A stretch of 63,137 nucleotides of DNA, filler included, from Atractiella rhizophila (Eukaryota): NCBI GenBank assembly GCA_021432655.1. It is 8 parts of 7 records of this genome, joined end to end, with 100 filler letters (N's around TTAATTAATTAA, not from the genome) between each part and the next. Parts side by side here need not be neighbours in the genome. Positions count along the whole stretch, not along the records: positions 37,340 to 43,409 come from MU272013.1; 7 more parts are not named here. One strand, given 5' to 3'. The position numbers and the translations under genes were made by a program. Positions 12,463 through 47,703 of this stretch are shown piece by piece. Position 1 is the first letter of the stretch. Every line of letters begins with the position of its first letter. Below the pieces are notes generated by a model. The model was not told the origin of the DNA. It worked only from the letters and a program-made list of their open reading frames with translations, and did no database searches.

Positions 12463-12562
12463 NNNNNNNNNNNNNNNNNNNNNNNNNNNNNNNNNNNNNN
12501 NNNNNNTTAATTAATTAANNNNNNNNNNNNNNNNNNNNNNNNNNNNNNNNNNNNNNNNNNNN
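12463..12562. other. Artificial contig spacer N44-TTAATTAATTAA-N44 (also 25018-25117, 37240-37339, 43410-43509, 52499-52598, 58783-58882, 61213-61312)
   Basis: Seven identical 100-nt blocks whose core has stops in all six frames; genes are cut at these junctions. Confidence 0.98.
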
Positions 12563-29612: not shown

Positions 29613-31321
29613 ATGGCCTCCCCAAAACCGGTTTACTCTCAAGCGACCATCTACGCGGATGCCAATGATCGCGCAGGGAGGGCATATTGGGACTACGACA
29701 ACCTTTGTGAGTGCGGCGTATAGGCATTGGTATGTAGCTCATGACGGCTTGGAACGAAAGTAATATCATGGGGCGTGATGGAGAACTATGAAATTGTGAA
29801 GAAGGTGGGGGAGAGGGAAGTATTCGGAGGTTTTTCAGGGTGTGGACTTGGAGCATGGAAATACTTGTGTTATAAAGGTGCGCTCTCTCTTTCTCTGACT
29901 GGAAAGCGATCTGGGAGCTTGCACATGAGGCATGCGATGAATTGCAATCCTTTCAACCCCCCTATGTCATCACCACATCACCTTCTGTGGCTGTGACGAA
30001 GTGGAGGCGTGTGGCAGGAGCGAGAGGATCTGACGCTTGATCATATGCAGGTCCTGAAACCCGTAAAAAAGAAAAAGATCAAACGAGAAATTAAAGTGTT
30101 GCAAAACTTACACGGCGGTCCAAACATTATCACTCTCCTGGACGTAGTCCGCGATCCCCAAGTACGTCCCTCATGTTCATTCATTTACGACTCAACAGCT
30201 AAGTGGATCGCTAGTCGAAAACGCCTTCTATTATCTTCGAATATGTGGATAACACAGATTTCAAAGTTCTCTACCCCAAATTTACCGATTATGACGTGAA
30301 TTCTCCTCTTGTTCTCGAACGGACACCTTATCAGTTGCTGCAGGTCCGGTTTTACATGTTTGAGATTCTGAAAGCTCTGGATTATGCTCACTCCAAAGGC
30401 ATAATGCATCGAGATGTAAAGCCCTACAACATCATGATCGATCACAAGAAGCGGAAGGTGGAGTTTCGTTCACTTTAATCATACGTGATTGATGACCTCG
30501 TACAGTTACGTTTGATTGATTGGGGATTGGCTGAATTTTACCATCCCAACACGGAGTATAACGTTCGCGTCTCATCACGACACTATAAGGGCCCTGAGCT
30601 GCTGGTGGATTATCAACTTTATGATTACAGTTTGGACATGTGGTCATTAGGTTGTACCTTTGCAGGAATGGTGTGTCACACTCAGTTCTTTCAGTCCATA
30701 ATTTGAGGCTCTCAATCTACAGATCTTCAGGAAAGATCCTTTCTTCCATGGGCACGACAACTATGACCAATTAGCCAAAATTACGAAGGTGTTAGGGACG
30801 GATGAGCTCTACTCATACCTCGAAAAGTATGAGGTTGAACTCGATCCGCAATTCGATGACATCCTCACTCGGTTCGTACTATTCGTATTGGCGATTTGTT
30901 TTACGAGTCTCGTCATCGCATTACAGATACCAGCGAAAGCCATGGTCACGATTCATCACAACTGAAAATCAGCGCTACATCTCCAATGAAGCCATCGACC
31001 TACTCGATAAACTGTTGAGATACGACCACCAAGAGAGGATCACCGCCAAGGACGCAATGGAGCATCCATTTTTTGGTTTGTGTTTGTGTCGCTGAGACTC
31101 ACTCACTTAGGATTCTTTCTGTTGTATATTAGAGCCAATCAGGCAGCCGGAAAAGCGAGGTCGGCGACCTGCAGCAAAAGAGAATGACAGCTTTTCAGCT
31201 CAGTCGACGACTTCGGAAACCAGCGAGAAGGTGGAGTTGAATAATGGAGGCAACGGTAGGTCTCCCCTTCATTTAGCTACAAGCGGAAGAGAACTGACTT
31301 TGGTATGTGACTGTAGTGTGA
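29613..31321 (+). CDS. CKA1: Casein kinase II catalytic (alpha) subunit, divergent; +1 frameshift at 29807-29811; 3' end approximate
   Basis: [80 protein letters not shown]. Confidence 0.93.
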
Positions 31322-33161
31322 AAGATACGCGCGGTAGAGAGTGTAGCGGTGTTGTGATTGTGAAAGGATAGTACGACGTTGCTCCGCGCTAGAGCAAGAG
31401 GCATTACCATTGTTCCTTTCTCATTCCCCCTCGTTCAAATATGTAGCTGTCATTCTGCAGAGTTTAGGCACATGCGCCATTGAAGTTATGTGACTTATGT
31501 CAGATGAATCGTTTTCTTCGTGAGTTGTTTCATAGCATAGAATAATTGGAACAGACGATTCAATCCACAATCCACCATTCGCACTTCGCGCTGACACCTC
31601 ACAGCCAAAAGTGGTGTCGTAAATAATCTCAACAACCTCTAAGGGTGAGGGAATGGGCGACGATTCGACTTAATTGTGACCACTCCTTGTTAAGTTGCTT
31701 TACCTGGGGCTAATAGTTGCAAATAGGGAACAAGGCAGAGTCAAAGACAAAGGGTTTGTTCAACACCTCACGTGACTGTGCTGGACTTCCAGGATACCTC
31801 CACGCTCTGCACTTGTACTTGTTTATACACAGGTCTGAAATTTCTGAAAGCTCTCCACGTAGTCCATAAATCAAAGATCGAAACGGGGTGAACAGCTGCG
31901 GCGCTGGAGGAAGGATAGCTTCCTCCACGATCCTACGTGACACCAACTTTAGATACGTTTCCTAACTTTCTGCTTTGCCTGTTGCTCTTGTGGAGGTCTT
32001 CAGCTTTGATCTTCGAAAACCGACGCTTGTGCCGGCTTGTGCGGACTCGTGGGATGGACAGTGAAGCTGTAGGGATCTAGGGATCTACGGGTGATCTACC
32101 GCGTATTTGAATATTCGAATATTCGTGCACTGGTCCTCGCTCTTGCAGATCATTTCAAAGCCCTGAACTGGACGAAGCTTTCGTCAGGCCAAGGCTTTGC
32201 AAGGGTGACGCAGTAACGGGAAGGACGGAATTTACACCTGCTTTCACAATGGAAATATATTCCTGCGAGTATTTGAAGCACGAAACAGTATTCCTTATTT
32301 GTTTGCACCGACTTCGTCACCGCAGTTAACTTCGCTATTTTCGATGGCTCTTCTTCCATGTTCCAGCGGGGCTCAAAGGGCGAAACAGCAATGGTGGGCC
32401 AGAACAAACCCCCGTCTTGTCTGTGACGGTGTGCGGTGCTTTAGCTTCCAAGTTGCTCCCCACCAATTTAGTCTGTTTCTTGCACGCCGGGCAAATCCTT
32501 ACATGTGCATCCGCTTGCCTACCACTCCGATATTACTTGCTCTTCAATGNNNNNNNNNNNNNNNNNNNNNNNNNNNNNNNNNNNNNNNNNNNNNNNNNNN
32601 NNNNNNNNNNNNNNNNNNNNNNNNNNNNNNNNNNNNNNNNNNNNNNNNNNNNNNNNNNNNNNNNNNNNNNNNNNNNNNNNNNNNNNNNNNNNNNNNNNNN
32701 NNNNNNNNNNNNNNNNNNNNNNNNNNNNNNNNNNNNNNNNNNNNNNNNNNNNNNNNNNNNNNNNNNNNNNNNNNNNNNNNNNNNNNNNNNNNNNNNNNNN
32801 NNNNNNNNNNNNNNNNNNNNNNNNNNNNNNNNNNNNNNNNNNNNNNNNNNNNNNNNNNNNNNNNNNNNNNNNNNNNNNNNNNNNNNNNNNNNNNNNNNNN
32901 NNNNNNNNNNNNNNNNNNNNNNNNNNNNNNNNNNNNNNNNNNNNNNNNNNNNNNNNNNNNNNNNNNNNNNNNNNNNNNNNNNNNNNNNNNNNNNNNNNNN
33001 NNNNNNNNNNNNNNNNNNNNNNNNNNNNNNNNNNNNNNNNNNNNNNNNNNNNNNNNNNNNNNNNNNNNNNNNNNNNNNNNNNNNNNNNNNNNNNNNNNNN
33101 NNNNNNNNNNNNNNNNNNNNNNNNNNNNNNNNNNNNNNNNNNNNNNNNNNNNNNNNNNNNN

Positions 33162-34529
33162 AGAGTTGTCAAATAGCTCATCCAGCTACCGAAGTAACCT
33201 CTACATCGCGACTAAAAGTCAACACTACTTAGCACTGGTACCGAAAGCGACCATAGACATTACGCTACTGCTCTGAGCATTTTGTTTAGCGGTTATGCTT
33301 ATCATGCTTGGCTCACTCCTACAGTAGCTTAACGCCTAGCTCAAGTTGGAGTATGAAAAGCTCCATACTCATCTCGAGTAGGCAGGGATTGTGGAAGCAT
33401 TAAAACCGATTAACCAGTATCAACAGCACGGGTACCTTCTTTCCTAGAAAGGACTTCTAGACATCTAACTCTCGGAGTTTAATACCTGACTTTCTTGACT
33501 CACACTGTGTGGTAAGGACGTTTCCATGTTGGATTACTGGTGTACAGGTTTGACATTAGTATTTCAACTATTAGGTGGTCGTCGAGTCCCGGGAATATCA
33601 CAGCACTACTCTGCGCTTGCAATATGAGGCACAACCCTACCATTTTAAGTCGGTTAGGGGTTAGTTAGTTTGCATTGACATGCTCCAGTAGTTAGTGCAT
33701 ACTAATTTCACTTGCTTTGAGGTGGAAGGCGAAGAACACTAGCTAGTACTACAACATCCCGAAATGTAGAGCTACGTAATACGGAAACCTCACTCGTATT
33801 AGGTCTCGAAAGTCTTAGAGTTTGTACATTTTGGCCTGGACGTCGTTGACTATTCCACAGGCAAGCTCTTGTTCTCCTCTTAAGTGCAGTATTAGCCATT
33901 TAAACCCCATCTCTTGAAACTTTAGACACAATAGGTGTATAAGCTTCTATTATCTTCCGCAAAAGCTGATCGCTAGGTGAATTGACAACTCAGCATTTAC
34001 TTACTTGTACTCCCTGCATGAACCCCTAGCGCCTGATGCAGGTCCTCTCACTATTACAAACCTGGCGGCACATTCAAAACGTTGTGAAATTAAAGAGCAA
34101 ACTAGAAAAAGAAAAAATGCCCAAAGTCCTGGACGTATACTAGTTCGCAGTCTAGGAGAGCGAGGACGGTGTGCGGAGGTGAAGCAGTGTCGGTGTCTTC
34201 CACTACACCACTACTGTATCCCCCCAACTTTCCTAACGTTAAGTAGCGTACGGAGTACACGTTCGAGGGTCTAGCGAAAGGTCAGTCTCTTTCTCTCTCG
34301 CGTGGAAATATTGTGTTCATAAAGGTACGAGGTTCAGGTGTGGGACTTTTTGGAGGCTTATGAAGGGAGAGGGGGTGGAAGAAGTGTTAAAGTATCAAGA
34401 GGTAGTGCGGGGTACTATAATGAAAGCAAGGTTCGGCAGTACTCGATGTATGGTTACGGATATGCGGCGTGAGTGTTTCCAACAGCATCAGGGTTATACG
34501 GGAGGGACGCGCTAGTAACCGTAGGCGCA
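33162..34529. repeat. Mirror (reversed, uncomplemented) copy of 29653-31020
   Basis: Starts agagttgtcaaatagctc, the backwards reading of ctcgataaactgttgaga (ends 31020); ends ccgtaggcgca, the backwards reading of acgcggatgcc (starts 29653); both 1368 nt. Confidence 0.98.
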
Positions 34530-36064
34530 TACGACCACCAAGAGAGGATCACCGCCAAGGACGCAATGGAGCATCCATTTTTTGGTTTGTGTTTGTGTCG
34601 CTGAGACTCACTCACTTAGGATTCTTTCCGTTGTATATTAGAGCCAATCAGGCAGCCGGAAAAGCGAGGTCGGCGACCTGCAGCAAAAGAGAATGACAGC
34701 TTTTCAGCTCAGTCGACGACTTCGGAAACCAGCGAGAAGGTGGAGTTGAATAATGGAGGCAACGGTAGGTTTCCCCTTCATTTAGCTACAAGCGGAAGAG
34801 AACTGACTTTGGTATGTGACTGCAGTGTGAAAGATACGCGCGGTAGAGAGTGTAGCGGTGTTGTGATTGTGAAAGGATAGTACGACGTTGCTCCGCGCTA
34901 GAGCAAGAGGCATTACCATTGTTCCTTTCTCATTCCCCCTCGTTCAAATATGTAGCTGTCATTCTGCAGAGTTTAGGCACATGCGCCATTGAAGTTATGT
35001 GACTTATGTCAGATGAATCGTTTTCTTCGTGAGTTGTTTCATAGCATAGAATAATTGGAACAGACGATTCAATCCACAATCCACCATTCGCACTTCGCGC
35101 TGACACCTCACAGCCAAAAGTGGTGTCGTAAATAATCTCAACAACCTCTAAGGGTGAGGGAATGGGCGACGATTCGACTTAATTGTGACCACTCCTTGTT
35201 AAGTTGCTTTACCTGGGGCTAATAGTTGCAAATAGGGAACAAGGCAGAGTCAAAGACAAAGGGTTTGTTCAACACCTCACGTGACTGTGCTGGACTTCCA
35301 GGATACCTCCACGCTCTGCACTTGTACTTGTTTATACACAGGTCTGAAATTTCTGAAAGCTCTCCACGTAGTCCATAAATCAAAGATCGAAACGGGGTGA
35401 ACAGCTGCGGCGCTGGAGGAAGGATAGCTTCCTCCACGATCCTACGTGACACCAACTTTAGATACGTTTCCTAACTTTCTGCTTTGCCTGTTGCTCTTGT
35501 GGAGGTTTTCAGCTTTGATCTTCGAAAACCGACGCTTGTGCAGGCTTGTGCGGACTCGTGGGATGGACAGTGAAGCTGGAGGGATCTATATAGGGATCTA
35601 CGGGTGATCCCTGGGTGATCTACCGCGTATTCGAATATTCGTGCACTGGTCCTCGCTCTTGCAGATCATTCAAAGCCCTGGACTGGACGAACCTTTCGTC
35701 AGGCCGAGGCTTTGCAAGGGTGACGCAGTAACGGGAAGGACGGAATTTACACCTGCTTGCACAAGGGAAATATATTCCTGCGAGTATTTGAAGCACGAAA
35801 CAGTATTCCTTATTTGTTTGCACCGACTTCGTCACCGCAGTTGACTTCGCTATTTTCGATGGCTCTTCTTCCATGTTCCAGCGGGGCTCAAAGGGCGAAA
35901 CAGCAATGGTGGGCCAGAACAAACCCCCGTCTTGTCTGTGACGGTGTGCGGTGCTTTAGCTTCCAAGTTGCTCCCCACCAATTTAGTCTGTTTCTTGCAC
36001 GCCGGGCAAATCCTTACATGTGCATCCGCTTGCCTACCACTCCGATATTACTTGCTCTTCAATG
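34530..36064 (+). repeat. Near-identical direct copy of 31021-32549 (CK2 3' end plus intergenic DNA)
   Basis: Both start tacgaccaccaagagagg and end cttgctcttcaatg; scattered SNPs and small indels (32070-32125 vs 35579-35640). Confidence 0.97.
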
Positions 36065-37339: not shown

Positions 37340-40300
37340 GACAGGAGCTGTCGACAGGTCAGAACGCTTCAAAAGGGTAACGCGAACTTACGAGGCGGTG
37401 GAGTGTTCACTATTTCCCAGATGTCAGCGCGGCAGAGAAAGAATCAAGCATTATCGCACCAATGGCAGATGATACAATCTGCAGGACCATCAGCTTTTTA
37501 AATGCATTTGGCCTTGACACGTACATTGAGCATGTATTTGGGATCGTGAATCGGTTCCAGCGATTTAAGGCTAAAAAATCTCCCGCATGCAGCAGCGTGA
37601 ACGCTTGCCGTATCGGTCAACTTCACATTTTTTTTACATCTAACAGTTCAGAAACTCACTCTCCACTTAGGAAAGTAACTCGAACATGCCTCTCAAGGGC
37701 AACTTTCTGAAATTGCTCAATAAGCCAATTACGCTCCTTCTTATGATTCGATGCTGTCCAACTAGAGAGAAAGCATCAGAGTTCAGCTGGATATTCCGAT
37801 AGTCACATACTGATCATTCAGATCGTCCAGTAACTCGGCCTAAGCTTTCTGGATTGAGCGCCAACACAATGGCACGAAAACACAGACCTCTTTATTGAAT
37901 TTGTTGACAAAGCCGCCCAGCCCCAACGTTCCAGTTTTGGCGAGCATCGTAATGGGATTGTACTTGTTTTCGAGTGCTGACCTACAAGAGCAACGTTAGG
38001 GATCCTTTAGGTTGTGAAAACGAGTCCATACTCCAGAAAGTTCATTCGAGGATAAGCTATTGGGACTCCCAGTTGAACAACTAGGTGCTTGGTGGAAGGG
38101 GGTAAGCTCTGGTGTAGGGTATTGAAGACTCGGTCATAGGTTTCCTCCGAACAGATCTTCTCTTTCTTCCTGCAGATTCAAACTTGTCAGAGACTTGTAA
38201 ATTGGAAAGAAATTTACCTCTCGGAGCGGCAGTCCAGCATCAACAATTGGACATTGGGTCCTAGTGGGGCGAGCCACGAGTAGCTGCGGAATGGAACATA
38301 ACCGCTTTCTACAAAGTAAACGTGTTCAGTTCCTGTTCTTCTGTCATATGGGAAAGAAGAGACNNNNNNNNNNNNNNNNNNNNNNNNNNNNNNNNNNNNN
38401 NNNNNNNNNNNNNNNNNNNNNNNNNNNNNNNNNNNNNNNNNNNNNNNNNNNNNNNNNNNNNNNNNNNNNNNNNNNNNNNNNNNNNNNNNNNNNNNNNNNN
38501 NNNNNNNNNNNNNNNNNNNNNNNNNNNNNNNNNNNNNNNNNNNNNNNNNNNNNNNNNNNNNNNNNNNNNNNNNNNNNNNNNNNNNNNNNNNNNNNNNNNN
38601 NNNNNNNNNNNNNNNNNNNNNNNNNNNNNNNNNNNNNNNNNNNNNNNNNNNNNNNNNNNNNNNNNNNNNNNNNNNNNNNNNNNNNNNNNNNNNNNNNNNN
38701 NNNNNNNNNNNNNNNNNNNNNNNNNNNNNNNNNNNNNNNNNNNNNNNNNNNNNNNNNNNNNNNNNNNNNNNNNNNNNNNNNNNNNNNNNNNNNNNNNNNN
38801 NNNNNNNNNNNNNNNNNNNNNNNNNNNNNNNNNNNNNNNNNNNNNNNNNNNNNNNNNNNNNNNNNNNNNNNNNNNNNNNNNNNNNNNNNNNNNNNNNNNN
38901 NNNNNNNNNNNNNNNNNNNNNNNNNNNNNNNNNNNNNNNNNNNNNNNNNNNNNNNNNNNNNNNNNNNNNNNNNNNNNNNNNNNNNNNNNNNNNNNNNNNN
39001 NNNNNNNNNNNNNNNNNNNNNNNNNNNNNNNNNNNNNNNNNNNNNNNNNNNNNNNNNNNNNGGTCTTGCCAGTGTCCGACTGAAAGACCCATGGACCACG
39101 ATTAGTTTTATACGCGACAGTCAGAAAAGAAAAACTGATGTTACAGGACTGTCACACTGTGTCCCCAACGGGTGTCGACGTTACCGAAAAGTCGCCCCTC
39201 AGCTGTGACGAAGAAAGTTAACAGGCTAGGTGAAACCTTACTGGAAGAATTCTCCGTAACCCCCGAAATTAGCGTTCCTCTTTGTGGTCTGTCAAAGCGG
39301 ACGTTGCCCCTCTGGCGTAAGTTCGCTAAGCACCATTCAAATTCCTCGTCCTTCAACACATACGTCCTCTTTGCTCAGACGTATCATCACGTGCGGATGG
39401 CACGAAGCGCGATCGCAATTCTTGGCACGGGAAGGATTGCATGAACTAATTGTCGAAAACAACTCTTGATACGACGTTTTGAAATGATCGACCGCGTCAA
39501 TCCATCGAACCGACGAAGAAAACTCACGTTAATCCGATAATTCCACATCCTCTCCTCTTGTACAAGTGGAATCTCCATCCTGAATCTCCAGAAAGAGTTC
39601 GAACCGCTGGTGGACCTGAATTCTTTGATTTTTTGCCCCGTTATATCTACGGCAGATTCTGGCCTTTGCGAGTCGAAAAGAGTGAGGTAGGGATGACGCG
39701 AGTAGTCTGAGTGGTTGTCGGAGGTGACTATCATGGCGTAGCCGATCCAGATCGGTCTTTCTGAGTAAACTATCGAGTCGTACCTGCCAACCAAGAGTTC
39801 AAGCGTTCAAACATTATAGTTGTTCAAGAGATGTAACGCACTTCAACATCGGTCCACACCTGCACACCAAAAAATAATTAAGTCAGTACGCATTCTAGAG
39901 CAATTTTGAAGGTGGTTGCGACTACAACTCGCCCATAGCTCACAGCAAGACTGTGATGAGCGACAACAAAGACAACGCCTTCCCAATTCCGGAAATTTGT
40001 ATCAGGACTCACATGAATTGCAGTCGAGGCTGAGTTGTCCCCCTCTTAACCCCACCACCAGCTCCAGGAATTTGACCTTCATCAACTGTAGCTGGAGGTC
40101 TATAATTTGGCACTTCATAGCCAGTAGTTCCGTCAATTGTTTTAGGGATCTGATCTGTTGGCAATCGAGGAAGTTCTGGTCTGGTAGGAGATGTGGGAGA
40201 TTGTCCGTAATCTTCATCATCGTAGGGCAAGACCTAAAGTAATTCAGGTTGCGGAATATTGATGTCAGTTAAAGAGAAATTACTTCGGCCTGAGGACGAC

Positions 40301-40422
40301 CAGCTGGGAATTCATGATCCTCTCTCTCAGCGCGACGGCGTGCGTGATATCCTGAAAACGGGTAGCGCGCTAGCTCAGCAGGAGCAAGTAACTAAGGAGA
40401 GCAACTTACCGGGTTCATCCAT
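37340..40422 (-). CDS. PhoD-like metallophosphatase-family protein; gapped, part of it mirror-reversed
   Basis: CGPMLK|YD, WIGYAMIVTSD, FWRFRMEIPL..YRIN, (mirror) FWVPGANQNMRWVAHSCNGFS, LDCRSER, VPIAYPRMNFLE, LLDDLND. Confidence 0.8.
39062..39484. other. Mirror-reversed segment containing PhoD-like exons
   Basis: Left-to-right complement reads ccag|AACGGTCACAGGCTGACTTTCTGGGTACCTGGTGCTAATCAAAATATGCGCT|gtcagt..ctgac..acag|GGGTTGCCCACAGCTGCAATGGCTTT. Confidence 0.93.
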
Positions 40423-44612: not shown

Positions 44613-45010
44613 CGTGAACGAGTCCATCCATTGTGCGCCAAGAAGCAGCATTGCAGCAGAAGCACAACGACCTGTGACACATGTAATGGCGTCCTGATGC
44701 GCTCGACGATTCTCAAAGTACTAGTTCACATATGACGACCTATGTTACCTTGAACGCACTGTTGAAATTGAAGCTCCATTAAAGAGAGCTGACCAGTCTT
44801 GGCGCTAACTCGCCATAATAACTATCCATATCTGTATCCATATCGAACTCTCCAGCACACTCAGTTCTCAGCCAAATTTAATCTCCAGATGGTTCAGTCA
44901 TGAGTAACGGGAAGTTCACTAAGGTTCAACGAGTTAGCCGTAGTTTTGCAACTACGGGTTTACGGAGTCATCTTGGAAGGCAAGCAAGGACGGAAAGGGT
45001 GATGGTACTG
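44613..45010 (-). mobile_element. Older fragment (LTR part plus gag start) of a related copia element
   Basis: Diverged direct similarity to 46321-46720 (cattgcagcagaagcacaac, cacactcagttctcagccaa, cgagttagccgta). Confidence 0.7.
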
Positions 45011-45103
45011 GAGACGTCATATATCGACGAAGGAGAACATACGTCGCGTAGAAGAGTTGGCCCCTTCTCTGTTCCCCGAGGATCTCTAACTTCAGCACCT
45101 AAT

Positions 45104-46823
45104 TGTTGGAAATCGACGGGGCTGAGGAGCGGAGCTAAGTACGACTTGGTTACGTTTGGCTGAGCTCTTGCAAACGCATGAGCACCAGGAAATGGAATTC
45201 TATGTGTTTATATAGCTTACAGCAGTGGCAACTAGAAAATAGTAGAACATTCCAGAAAACTAAAGAACTTTGCCACTGAGTGGCACGAAACTAGACTGCA
45301 AAATCCAACACTTCCGCCCAGGCTTGTGGAGTGCCACGAGGTAATCAATAGAAAGTAGAGTTAATCGATAAGGTCATTTAAAGGTAAACAAGAGTCAATT
45401 CAATTCTCAACAAGGGGATCTCAAACTTTAATACTCATCAAAACCTTCCGCCGATTTCTTGCTTCTGCCAGCTTCAAGGCACATCAATACGAGGTCATAG
45501 CTGTCCCATGATGCTTCACCAACGATGAAAGATCGTCTTCCTACGCCTGAAGATGATACACGGCCTCCATTCGCCAAATTTCACCGGATCTTGAGACCAT
45601 TCAACTATTACTCCCCTCAATCTTCTTTTCTTCTTTTAAAAAAGCTGCATCTATCAAGGCTTCATTGATAGCTAGGTGTGTACTCTCCTGTGGCTTCGCT
45701 TTTCTGTCGCAATCTCGAGCAATGTGAGTGGGATTACCACATATCCAACAGGCTCGTGAGGTACCGTTATTCTGGGATTCTGAATATCGTTCAAATCTTC
45801 GACTATTCTCCCTCTGTTGTTCCTTCCTTCCCCATTTAGGCGCTGCTCTAGCCATTGCAGCTATCTCTATCTCTCCTGGTATTCCACCTCTTCTCCTCTC
45901 TTCATCCCTGAGTGCTGAAACGACTTCATCAATTGTCTGCTCCCCTTTCATGGCCATGAGCGTGCTGACGAAACTTCAACATGCCCCACCAAGAATGTGA
46001 AGAGCAGGACATCACGCTAATATCTGGGTTTCCAACAAGCTGCAAACCAAACGGATACTCATGTGAAAAGGACAGCCAGGCAAGGTACCCGTCCTCCGAG
46101 ACTGAATTGAGCCAAACAACAAACACCTCAATATCAATACTATGACGGGTAAAATCCCCGATTCAAGCCATCATTCTGTCCAGAAACAAAAGAGCTGAAT
46201 TCGTCAGACTTCTCAGACACGACTCTCCATGCTTCTGGACCAGAAACGCGGCCTTCGAACAAACATGCAACTCCTGAAAGATCGAGGCTGGAGGAAACAC
46301 AAGTAATGTAAGATGAAGTTCGTCAAACGAGCCATCCATCGTTGCACCAAGAACCAGTCATTGCAGCAGAAGCACAACCACCTGTCACACATGTAAGGAC
46401 ATCCTCATGCAATCGACAATTCTTCAGGAAGAGAGTGACAGCAAATGACCAGCCTGCATAGTTACCTTCAAGCGAGCTGTGGAAATTCGAAGATCCAGTA
46501 AACAGAACTCCAACAGTATGGGTCGACATAACTGGCGCGCACAACGAACAGATCCGATCATCTGGACTCCAGACCGAACTCTCAACCACACTCAGTTCTC
46601 AGCCAAGGAAATCGACGAGATGAGTCAGCGGAGCTAAGTACGACTAAGGTTAAGCGAGTTAGCCGTACCTCTTGCAACTACGGCATGACGCAGCCAGAAG
46701 AAAGGAACGCAAAGTGGTGATGATAGCTTACAGAAGTCACAAATAGAAAATAGGAGAACATTACAGAAAACTAGAAGAACTTGGCCACTTCACTGGCACC
46801 AAACGAGACTGCAAAATCCAACA
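45104..46823 (-). mobile_element. Internally deleted Ty1/copia LTR retrotransposon
   Basis: LTR 45104-45310 (TGTTGGA..TCCAACA), second LTR ~46607-46823; PPT-like GGGCGGAAG; gag N-terminus LEGNYAGW; zinc knuckle CWICGNPTHIARDC; CCTAAT on both flanks. Confidence 0.85.
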
Positions 46824-47703
46824 CCTAATCCACGCTCCCGTCATGCATTGTTGGGACTTTGTTTTTCTCAGCTTCTTCGCCAAATCATGCAGATACACGA
46901 ACAATCGACGGCAGCAGCTACCGACTGCTAACTGTTACCCGTATCAAGCCACAAATCTGGCACCGCAGTGCAATTTCCCACGAAAACTTCTACACTGCCG
47001 TTGCTTCAAGTTGCCATCCTTCACCGAATCACTTGTCGGTTCTACATGACTATAAAATATATAATATCCACCAAATATGACTCCTCAGACGGGTGGTGCT
47101 CATGAGAGATTCTGGCAGGAATGGAGGTGATGTAGGATGACGGCGGAGTAAGCAGGCGGGATGATGGGAATTTTCCCATACTGGGCTCCAGCAGCGGGAG
47201 CGCAGGGAAGGGCACAAAAAGGGGCTAACGACTGCTTACGATTCCTCCAATTACGACCACCATCAAAAAACTACGACGACGAATAGCTGTTCTCACTTTC
47301 ATCATTTCGGGCAAAAGCAAGCAGAGCATTTCGTTTCGCAATTAGCACTCGCATATTATTCGCTTTTCTCCAGTTTTTTGACGTCTATTCCTCTCAAAAC
47401 ACGTATTCGTCGCCGTCTCCCTCTCCTCACATCCACAGCTCTCAATTTTAACGCTCAAGATGGCCACCAAATCGTCGCGCTTCTCCTCTCCCGCTGCAAG
47501 GCTCCTCTCCCCCGCTCGAACCTGCGTAGCAACAAGCGTTGTCGACTCCATCCAAAGCGAGGGCTTCGGCCCCTATCCCTCTCATCCCACGCGAGAATGA
47601 ACAACCCGAAGTCATCATCCTCCACAATCGATGCCGCGCTGCTCCAGCGAGCAACAGCGTGGTTCGTCTTGCAATGTAACTTCTCTTCTCCTTGCAGTGA
47701 CTG

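Follow-up and report, generated by a model that had tools for sequence, protein, structure and literature searches.

The closest described counterparts of the segment analysed here are the flank extensions of the long-read gap filler PBJelly and the ordinary inversion misassembly. PBJelly adds flank extensions to gaps that are left unclosed (English et al. 2012, PMC3504050) and expands short gaps to exactly 25 bp (PMC6733440), and its fills reach a mean identity of 88.6-95.2% (PMC8848313). A reversed, uncomplemented extension is not described in the available text of any of the three; the words 'reverse', 'complement' and 'extension' are absent from that of PMC8848313, and the available parts of PMC7220310 and PMC5959919 held nothing relevant to a reversal fault. 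No published description of such a fault was found in the literature searched, outside which most subscription papers and bug trackers lie. An ordinary inversion misassembly likewise places a misordered block beside a gap, but its sequence is a reverse complement and is detectable by any six-frame search, whereas the blocks described below, which are reversed without being complemented (hereafter mirrors), cannot be seen by BLAST, by read mapping or by polishing on either strand.

One of these blocks lies within a gene of Atractiella rhizophila (Table 1). The window is the whole stretch of DNA that was analysed, 63,137 nucleotides with filler included. It contains seven linkers of identical sequence, each 100 nt long (a 12-nt word with stops in all frames between two runs of 44 N), at positions 12463, 25018, 37240, 43410, 52499, 58783 and 61213; they join pieces of different scaffolds and are absent from the compared stretches of the assembly itself (G000), and thus neighbourhood across a linker is meaningless. 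A diverged direct duplication, 72-80% identical, is also present in the window at 44617-45311 and 46326-46824.

Table 1. Features of the window considered in this study (positions along the window)
Feature	Position and length	Strand	Remarks
PhoD_2 gene, copy on this scaffold	37340..40422	-	3' end (final 88 residues or so) falls outside the scaffold, which starts at 37340
Gap	38364..39061, 698 N	.	C24 copy has 630 nt there, encoding approximately residues 231-373
Mirror segment	39062..39258, 197 nt	.	True sequence reversed in place, uncomplemented; complement aligns to L002:1727-1924
Intron end with AG acceptor	39062..39065	.	Last 4 nt of a 273-nt intron, complement read left to right; X3 spliced contig
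Hidden exon	39066..39117	.	P0001 residues 182-198 plus first base of the next codon; tblastn 17/17 identical, complement-only
Hidden GT-AG intron	39118..39163	.	46 nt here, 47 nt in the C24 copy
Next hidden exon, first part	39164..39258	.	Residues 199-230, where the PhoD_2 domain begins; the C24 exon matches Pfam PF19050 with E 3.7e-06
Ordinary intron sequence, outside the mirror	39259..39527, 269 nt	-	Gap-free alignment to L002; covered by X1, X2 and X3 contigs
Exon ending YRIN	39528..39783	-	P0001 match; both exon ends are joints in X3
First mirror of the window (C833:8045-9413)	33162..34530, 1369 nt	.	At the right edge of a gap; reverse of 29652-31020, 99.93%, complement-only BLAST

The PhoD_2 gene and its two copies

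The gene is predicted to encode an ordinary PhoD-type phosphatase, with the Pfam domain PhoD_2 (PF19050). A second copy of the locus, approximately 98% identical, is present in the same genome (G000:C24, here locus L002), and its annotated product, P0001, is a protein of 653 aa that is listed at NCBI as a 'hypothetical protein' of A. rhizophila, is encoded on a contig of 170,130 nt and carries precomputed matches to PF09423 and PF19050. When exon fragments of the C24 copy were compared with PF19050, two of the nine exceeded the cut-off of 22 (25.8 and 24.2 bits), a third reached 20.4 and the other six gave no match. Compared with P0001, the copy on the present scaffold is incomplete because of the gap and the scaffold end, and its DNA is about 2% different; the exon upstream of the mirror is 100% identical to P0001 over 85 aa.

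A tblastn search with P0001 placed residues 4-181 and those from 374 onward on the minus strand of the window, and residues 182-230 on the complement-only reading alone (the complement read left to right), while approximately residues 231-373 (about 143 residues) fall within the N gap. P0001 includes the hidden exons in the order predicted. In the preliminary description, the mirror was held to hide the missing exons of the gene and such exons were thought to be lost from annotation. The former holds for residues 182-230, as the mirror conceals about 49 of the approximately 192 residues missing from this copy and the remainder lies in the N gap; the latter does not hold, since these exons are part of the annotation of the C24 copy. 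When the exon preceding the mirror was used as a protein query, one protein (P0001) was returned among five candidates and none for the copy on this scaffold, which is weak evidence.

The two copies also differ further upstream. A stretch of 81 nt at 40210-40290, consisting of a 50-nt intron and 31 coding nucleotides, is missing from the C24 copy at L002 773-776. Translation from the first ATG (40422) stays open in the window copy, while in the C24 copy it is frameshifted and runs into a stop; the annotated start of P0001 is an overlapping ATG 4 nt downstream, which has the correct frame only in the copy that carries the deletion. Contigs of the sequencing runs X1 and X2 contain the form with the 81-nt deletion, and in X3 and X4 the intron is spliced out. 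We read this difference as an imprecise intron loss, possibly rescued by the second start.

Extent of the mirror and its continuation in sequencing contigs

The first base of the mirror, 39062, directly follows the 698-N gap, in agreement with the preliminary description. Read as complement only, the sequence from this base provides a CAG acceptor, the exon NGHRLTFWVPGANQNMR, a 46-nt GT-AG intron and then WVAHSCNGFSAG..DPLWNDLLKRH, as had been reported and as we reproduced here; the exon reading is absent from both ordinary strands. A self-comparison of the window likewise bore out that it holds no forward copy of the mirror. When the complement was aligned by BLAST to the second locus copy, all 197 nt matched at 97.5% identity with an E value of 1e-88, and thus chance is ruled out; the alignment contains two substitutions and three indels. 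Two of these indels, a +1 and a -1, are separated by 26 nt in the exon part 39164-39258 and alter a few residues relative to the C24 copy. By composition alone the mirror scored -6.8 bits under a Markov model, and with 43 of 1050 controls below -7 this is weak for so short a segment.

On the other side of the junction, the reverse complement of 39259-39560 aligned to L002:1425-1726 (302 nt) with five substitutions and no gaps. The matches of the mirror and of its normal flank therefore meet at L002 1726|1727, without gap or overlap, with 39062 carrying the base that should adjoin 39259. Because the two matches meet seamlessly, the mirror is confined to 39062-39258 (G000:C834:1723-1919 in scaffold coordinates) and 39259-39484 is ordinary intron. 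The mirror had originally been drawn from 39062 to 39484, with the intron after YRIN cut short at about 39485. A mirror of that length now has practically no probability: the minus strand of 39259-39484 indeed lacks coding sense, as is expected of an intron, but the stretch aligns to the C24 copy in normal orientation at 98%, is covered by contigs and scores +14 bits in favour of the normal reading. The intron in fact runs normally from 39527 to 39259 and, with the first four bases of the mirror, amounts to 273 nt. Reversing 39062-39484, as was proposed as a correction, would add a new error of 226 nt.

Sequencing data were consulted as contigs rather than raw reads, and those of X1 to X4 were compared with 39062-40261 as written. 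Among the 24 runs listed, X1 and X2, which come from one sample, hold at least half of the words and X3 holds 0.48. X1 and X2 may represent the assembly's own sample, which for the present question makes them the relevant test and is no weakness. Each of the two yielded one 391-nt contig that is exact over 39259-39446 and then continues with 203 loose letters, and the displayed 30 of these letters nearest 39259 are the reverse of 39062-39091. An X3 contig departs at 39528 and goes on as the reverse of 39066-39095, as expected if splicing joins it directly to the hidden exon; a 58-nt intron upstream is likewise absent from X3, which has joints at both ends of the exon 39528-39783. As its contigs are spliced, X3 presumably derives from RNA. 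The contigs of all three runs thus follow the un-mirrored form, and the in-place reversal suggested earlier is supported. Depth was zero over 39062-39221 in all four runs, but contigs show presence and not absence, so this carries no weight; the X4 contigs reach only 40105-40233 and are uninformative on the mirror.

The depth of the 391-nt contig, 231 in X1 and 335 in X2, is close to the sums of the adjoining alleles (146+76 and 231+130, respectively), and accordingly no allelic split is seen inside this contig. We infer that consensus errors account for the differences of the mirror from the C24 copy, the +1/-1 pair in the exon among them. Elsewhere in the locus, three alleles of similar depth were observed at 39881-40030 (108, 104 and 119 in X1; 141, 143 and 130 in X2), and an allele pair at a ratio of 2:1 occurs in the contigs at 39417-39541. 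These data hint at three haplotypes of the locus, two of which are found in the assembly.

Mirrors at other gap edges

To describe the wider distribution of mirrors, we sampled 792 kb of the 51.5-Mb G000, comprising the small scaffolds C827-C858, ten scaffolds of approximately 25 kb, C24 and parts of C200 and C300. This sample holds 42 gaps, of which 79 edges were scored (five edges cut by the end of a region were left unscored); being rich in small scaffolds, it provides rates that are not to be extended to the whole 51.5 Mb. Complement-only BLAST identified mirrors at C834:1723-1919, C834:7946-9485, C833:8045-9413, C830:5632-5785, C830:9449-9525 and C609:5487-5805. At C609, the inner 319 nt were aligned and the extension to the gap rests on composition.

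In a separate composition test, a leave-one-contig-out Markov score for the forward against the complement-only reading was walked from each gap edge. Scores below -30 bits were obtained at seven of the 79 edges, compared with none of 1050 control walks below even -20 (Fisher p 6e-9, an approximate value as the control walks overlap); the signal thus recurs at gap edges and not elsewhere. Four edges were predicted from composition only, and all three of those tested were confirmed by alignment to second copies: a 903-nt mirror at a right edge in C836, a 941-nt mirror at a left edge in C853 and a mirror of at least 1489 nt at a right edge in C607, each joining its normal flank within 0-9 nt. 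The fourth, a right edge in C829, a scaffold with a 25-N gap, scored -35.7 bits and is indicated by composition alone. Six further edges at -7 to -14 bits (in C200, C854, C858, C841, C24 and C852) are not included in the confirmed count, and short mirrors are below the power of this test and hence under-counted.

In total, alignment confirmed mirrors at nine of the 79 sampled edges, with one more (C829) by composition only. Their lengths range from approximately 0.1 to 2.1 kb, and every confirmed mirror ends at a gap or within 19 nt of one and adjoins normal sequence. The earlier view of a systematic fault is thus supported; a restriction of the mirrors to right edges was ruled out by those at left edges (four left, five right).

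Several observations concern individual scaffolds. The scaffold of the PhoD_2 gene carries a second mirror of 1540 nt outside the window (C834:7946-9485, L003), also at a right edge; both mirrors of C830 are at left edges, and the affected side is uniform within C834 and within C830. The first mirror of the window duplicates sequence already present to the left of its gap. In the same part of the window, 31020-32549 and 34529-36064 are tandem copies, 98% alike, that flank a 612-N gap, and these are probably two haplotypes scaffolded side by side.

Origin and implications of the mirrors

Taken together, the mirror in the PhoD_2 gene is almost certainly an assembly artefact and no biological feature, most likely an unflipped flank extension from gap filling. 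Since no confirmed case ends more than 19 nt from a gap and each adjoins normal sequence, we infer that the mirror arose during gap filling. A gap-filling step would have started at the contig end at 39259 and built outward into the gap, which would have stayed unclosed, and the extension would have been output with its order unflipped, that is, complemented and unreversed relative to the minus-strand build, which equals the true plus strand reversed in place.

On balance, we lean towards a PBJelly-type long-read tool with one faulty orientation branch as the filler. The mirror lies inside an unclosed gap and is joined to a contig end, and sequence added at a contig end, a shortened gap, gaps of 25 N and, in some of the mirrors, an accuracy below that of contigs are features in common with PBJelly flank extensions. 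Among the 42 gaps, the smallest size is exactly 25 N, seen in four of them, although a 25-N minimum may not be unique to one tool. The two C834 mirrors (1737 nt) contain 11 indel events and their normal neighbours (7728 nt) likewise 11 (p 7.5e-4), with no difference in substitutions (p 0.44), and all eight indels of the 1540-nt mirror are in the half distal to the anchor. Similarly, the C607 mirror has ten indels in 1489 nt versus two in 2474 nt of normal sequence, and C836 shows a slight excess (eight in 903 nt versus three in 433 nt). In C853 there was no indel excess (three in 941 nt of mirror versus 11 in 2950 nt), and the 1369-nt first mirror has no indels.

That some mirrors are nearly error-free (1369 nt at 99.93%, and C853) would fit another source of the same artefact, such as a short-read gap closer, a contig extender or an in-house script. 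The mirror of the PhoD_2 gene moreover stops 6 nt before the end of the short-read contig in X1 and X2 (197 versus 203 letters), like an extension halted at a haplotype branch. Against such a source are the surplus of indels in the mirrors of C834 and C607, its distal position in the 1540-nt mirror and the 25-N minimum gap; we consider it possible, at less than an even chance. A reversal introduced after assembly, by file handling or by the cutting of the window, is very unlikely. The window was indeed re-cut, its seven linkers standing for scaffold ends and long gaps and being absent from G000, but G000:C834 has the identical mirror in every letter, and the handler of a finished file could not know the seamless intra-scaffold junctions at which mirrors of such varied length end. 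Reversed DNA truly present in the organism would have the written sequence itself in its favour and nothing further, and its probability is negligible: the contigs of three runs proceed in un-mirrored letters, and the confirmed mirrors are all located at assembly gaps. No polymerase or recombinase is known to produce copies that are reversed and uncomplemented. An error in colour-space decoding was set aside as well, since it would be expected to yield several different letter permutations and every aligned case is a plain reversal.

With an unflipped gap-filling extension as the preferred explanation, the significance of these findings is in data quality. Mirrored blocks evade BLAST, mapping and polishing, make genes seem broken and yield false orphan sequence, and in the present sample they affect at least nine of 79 gap edges with blocks of up to approximately 2.1 kb. 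Should a common tool be responsible, further assemblies would have to be screened, for which the composition test is cheap and was correct in each of the three predictions checked. A much broader generalization, which we regard as rather doubtful, is that a long-read gap filler in wide use has an orientation fault, so far unreported, which left reversed, uncomplemented DNA at about one in eight gap edges, so that many contemporaneous public drafts would hold coding sequence hidden from aligners, polishers and gene finders and recoverable by the composition test. For the biology of A. rhizophila, the mirror has no consequence, as the gene is an ordinary one and its second copy is annotated.
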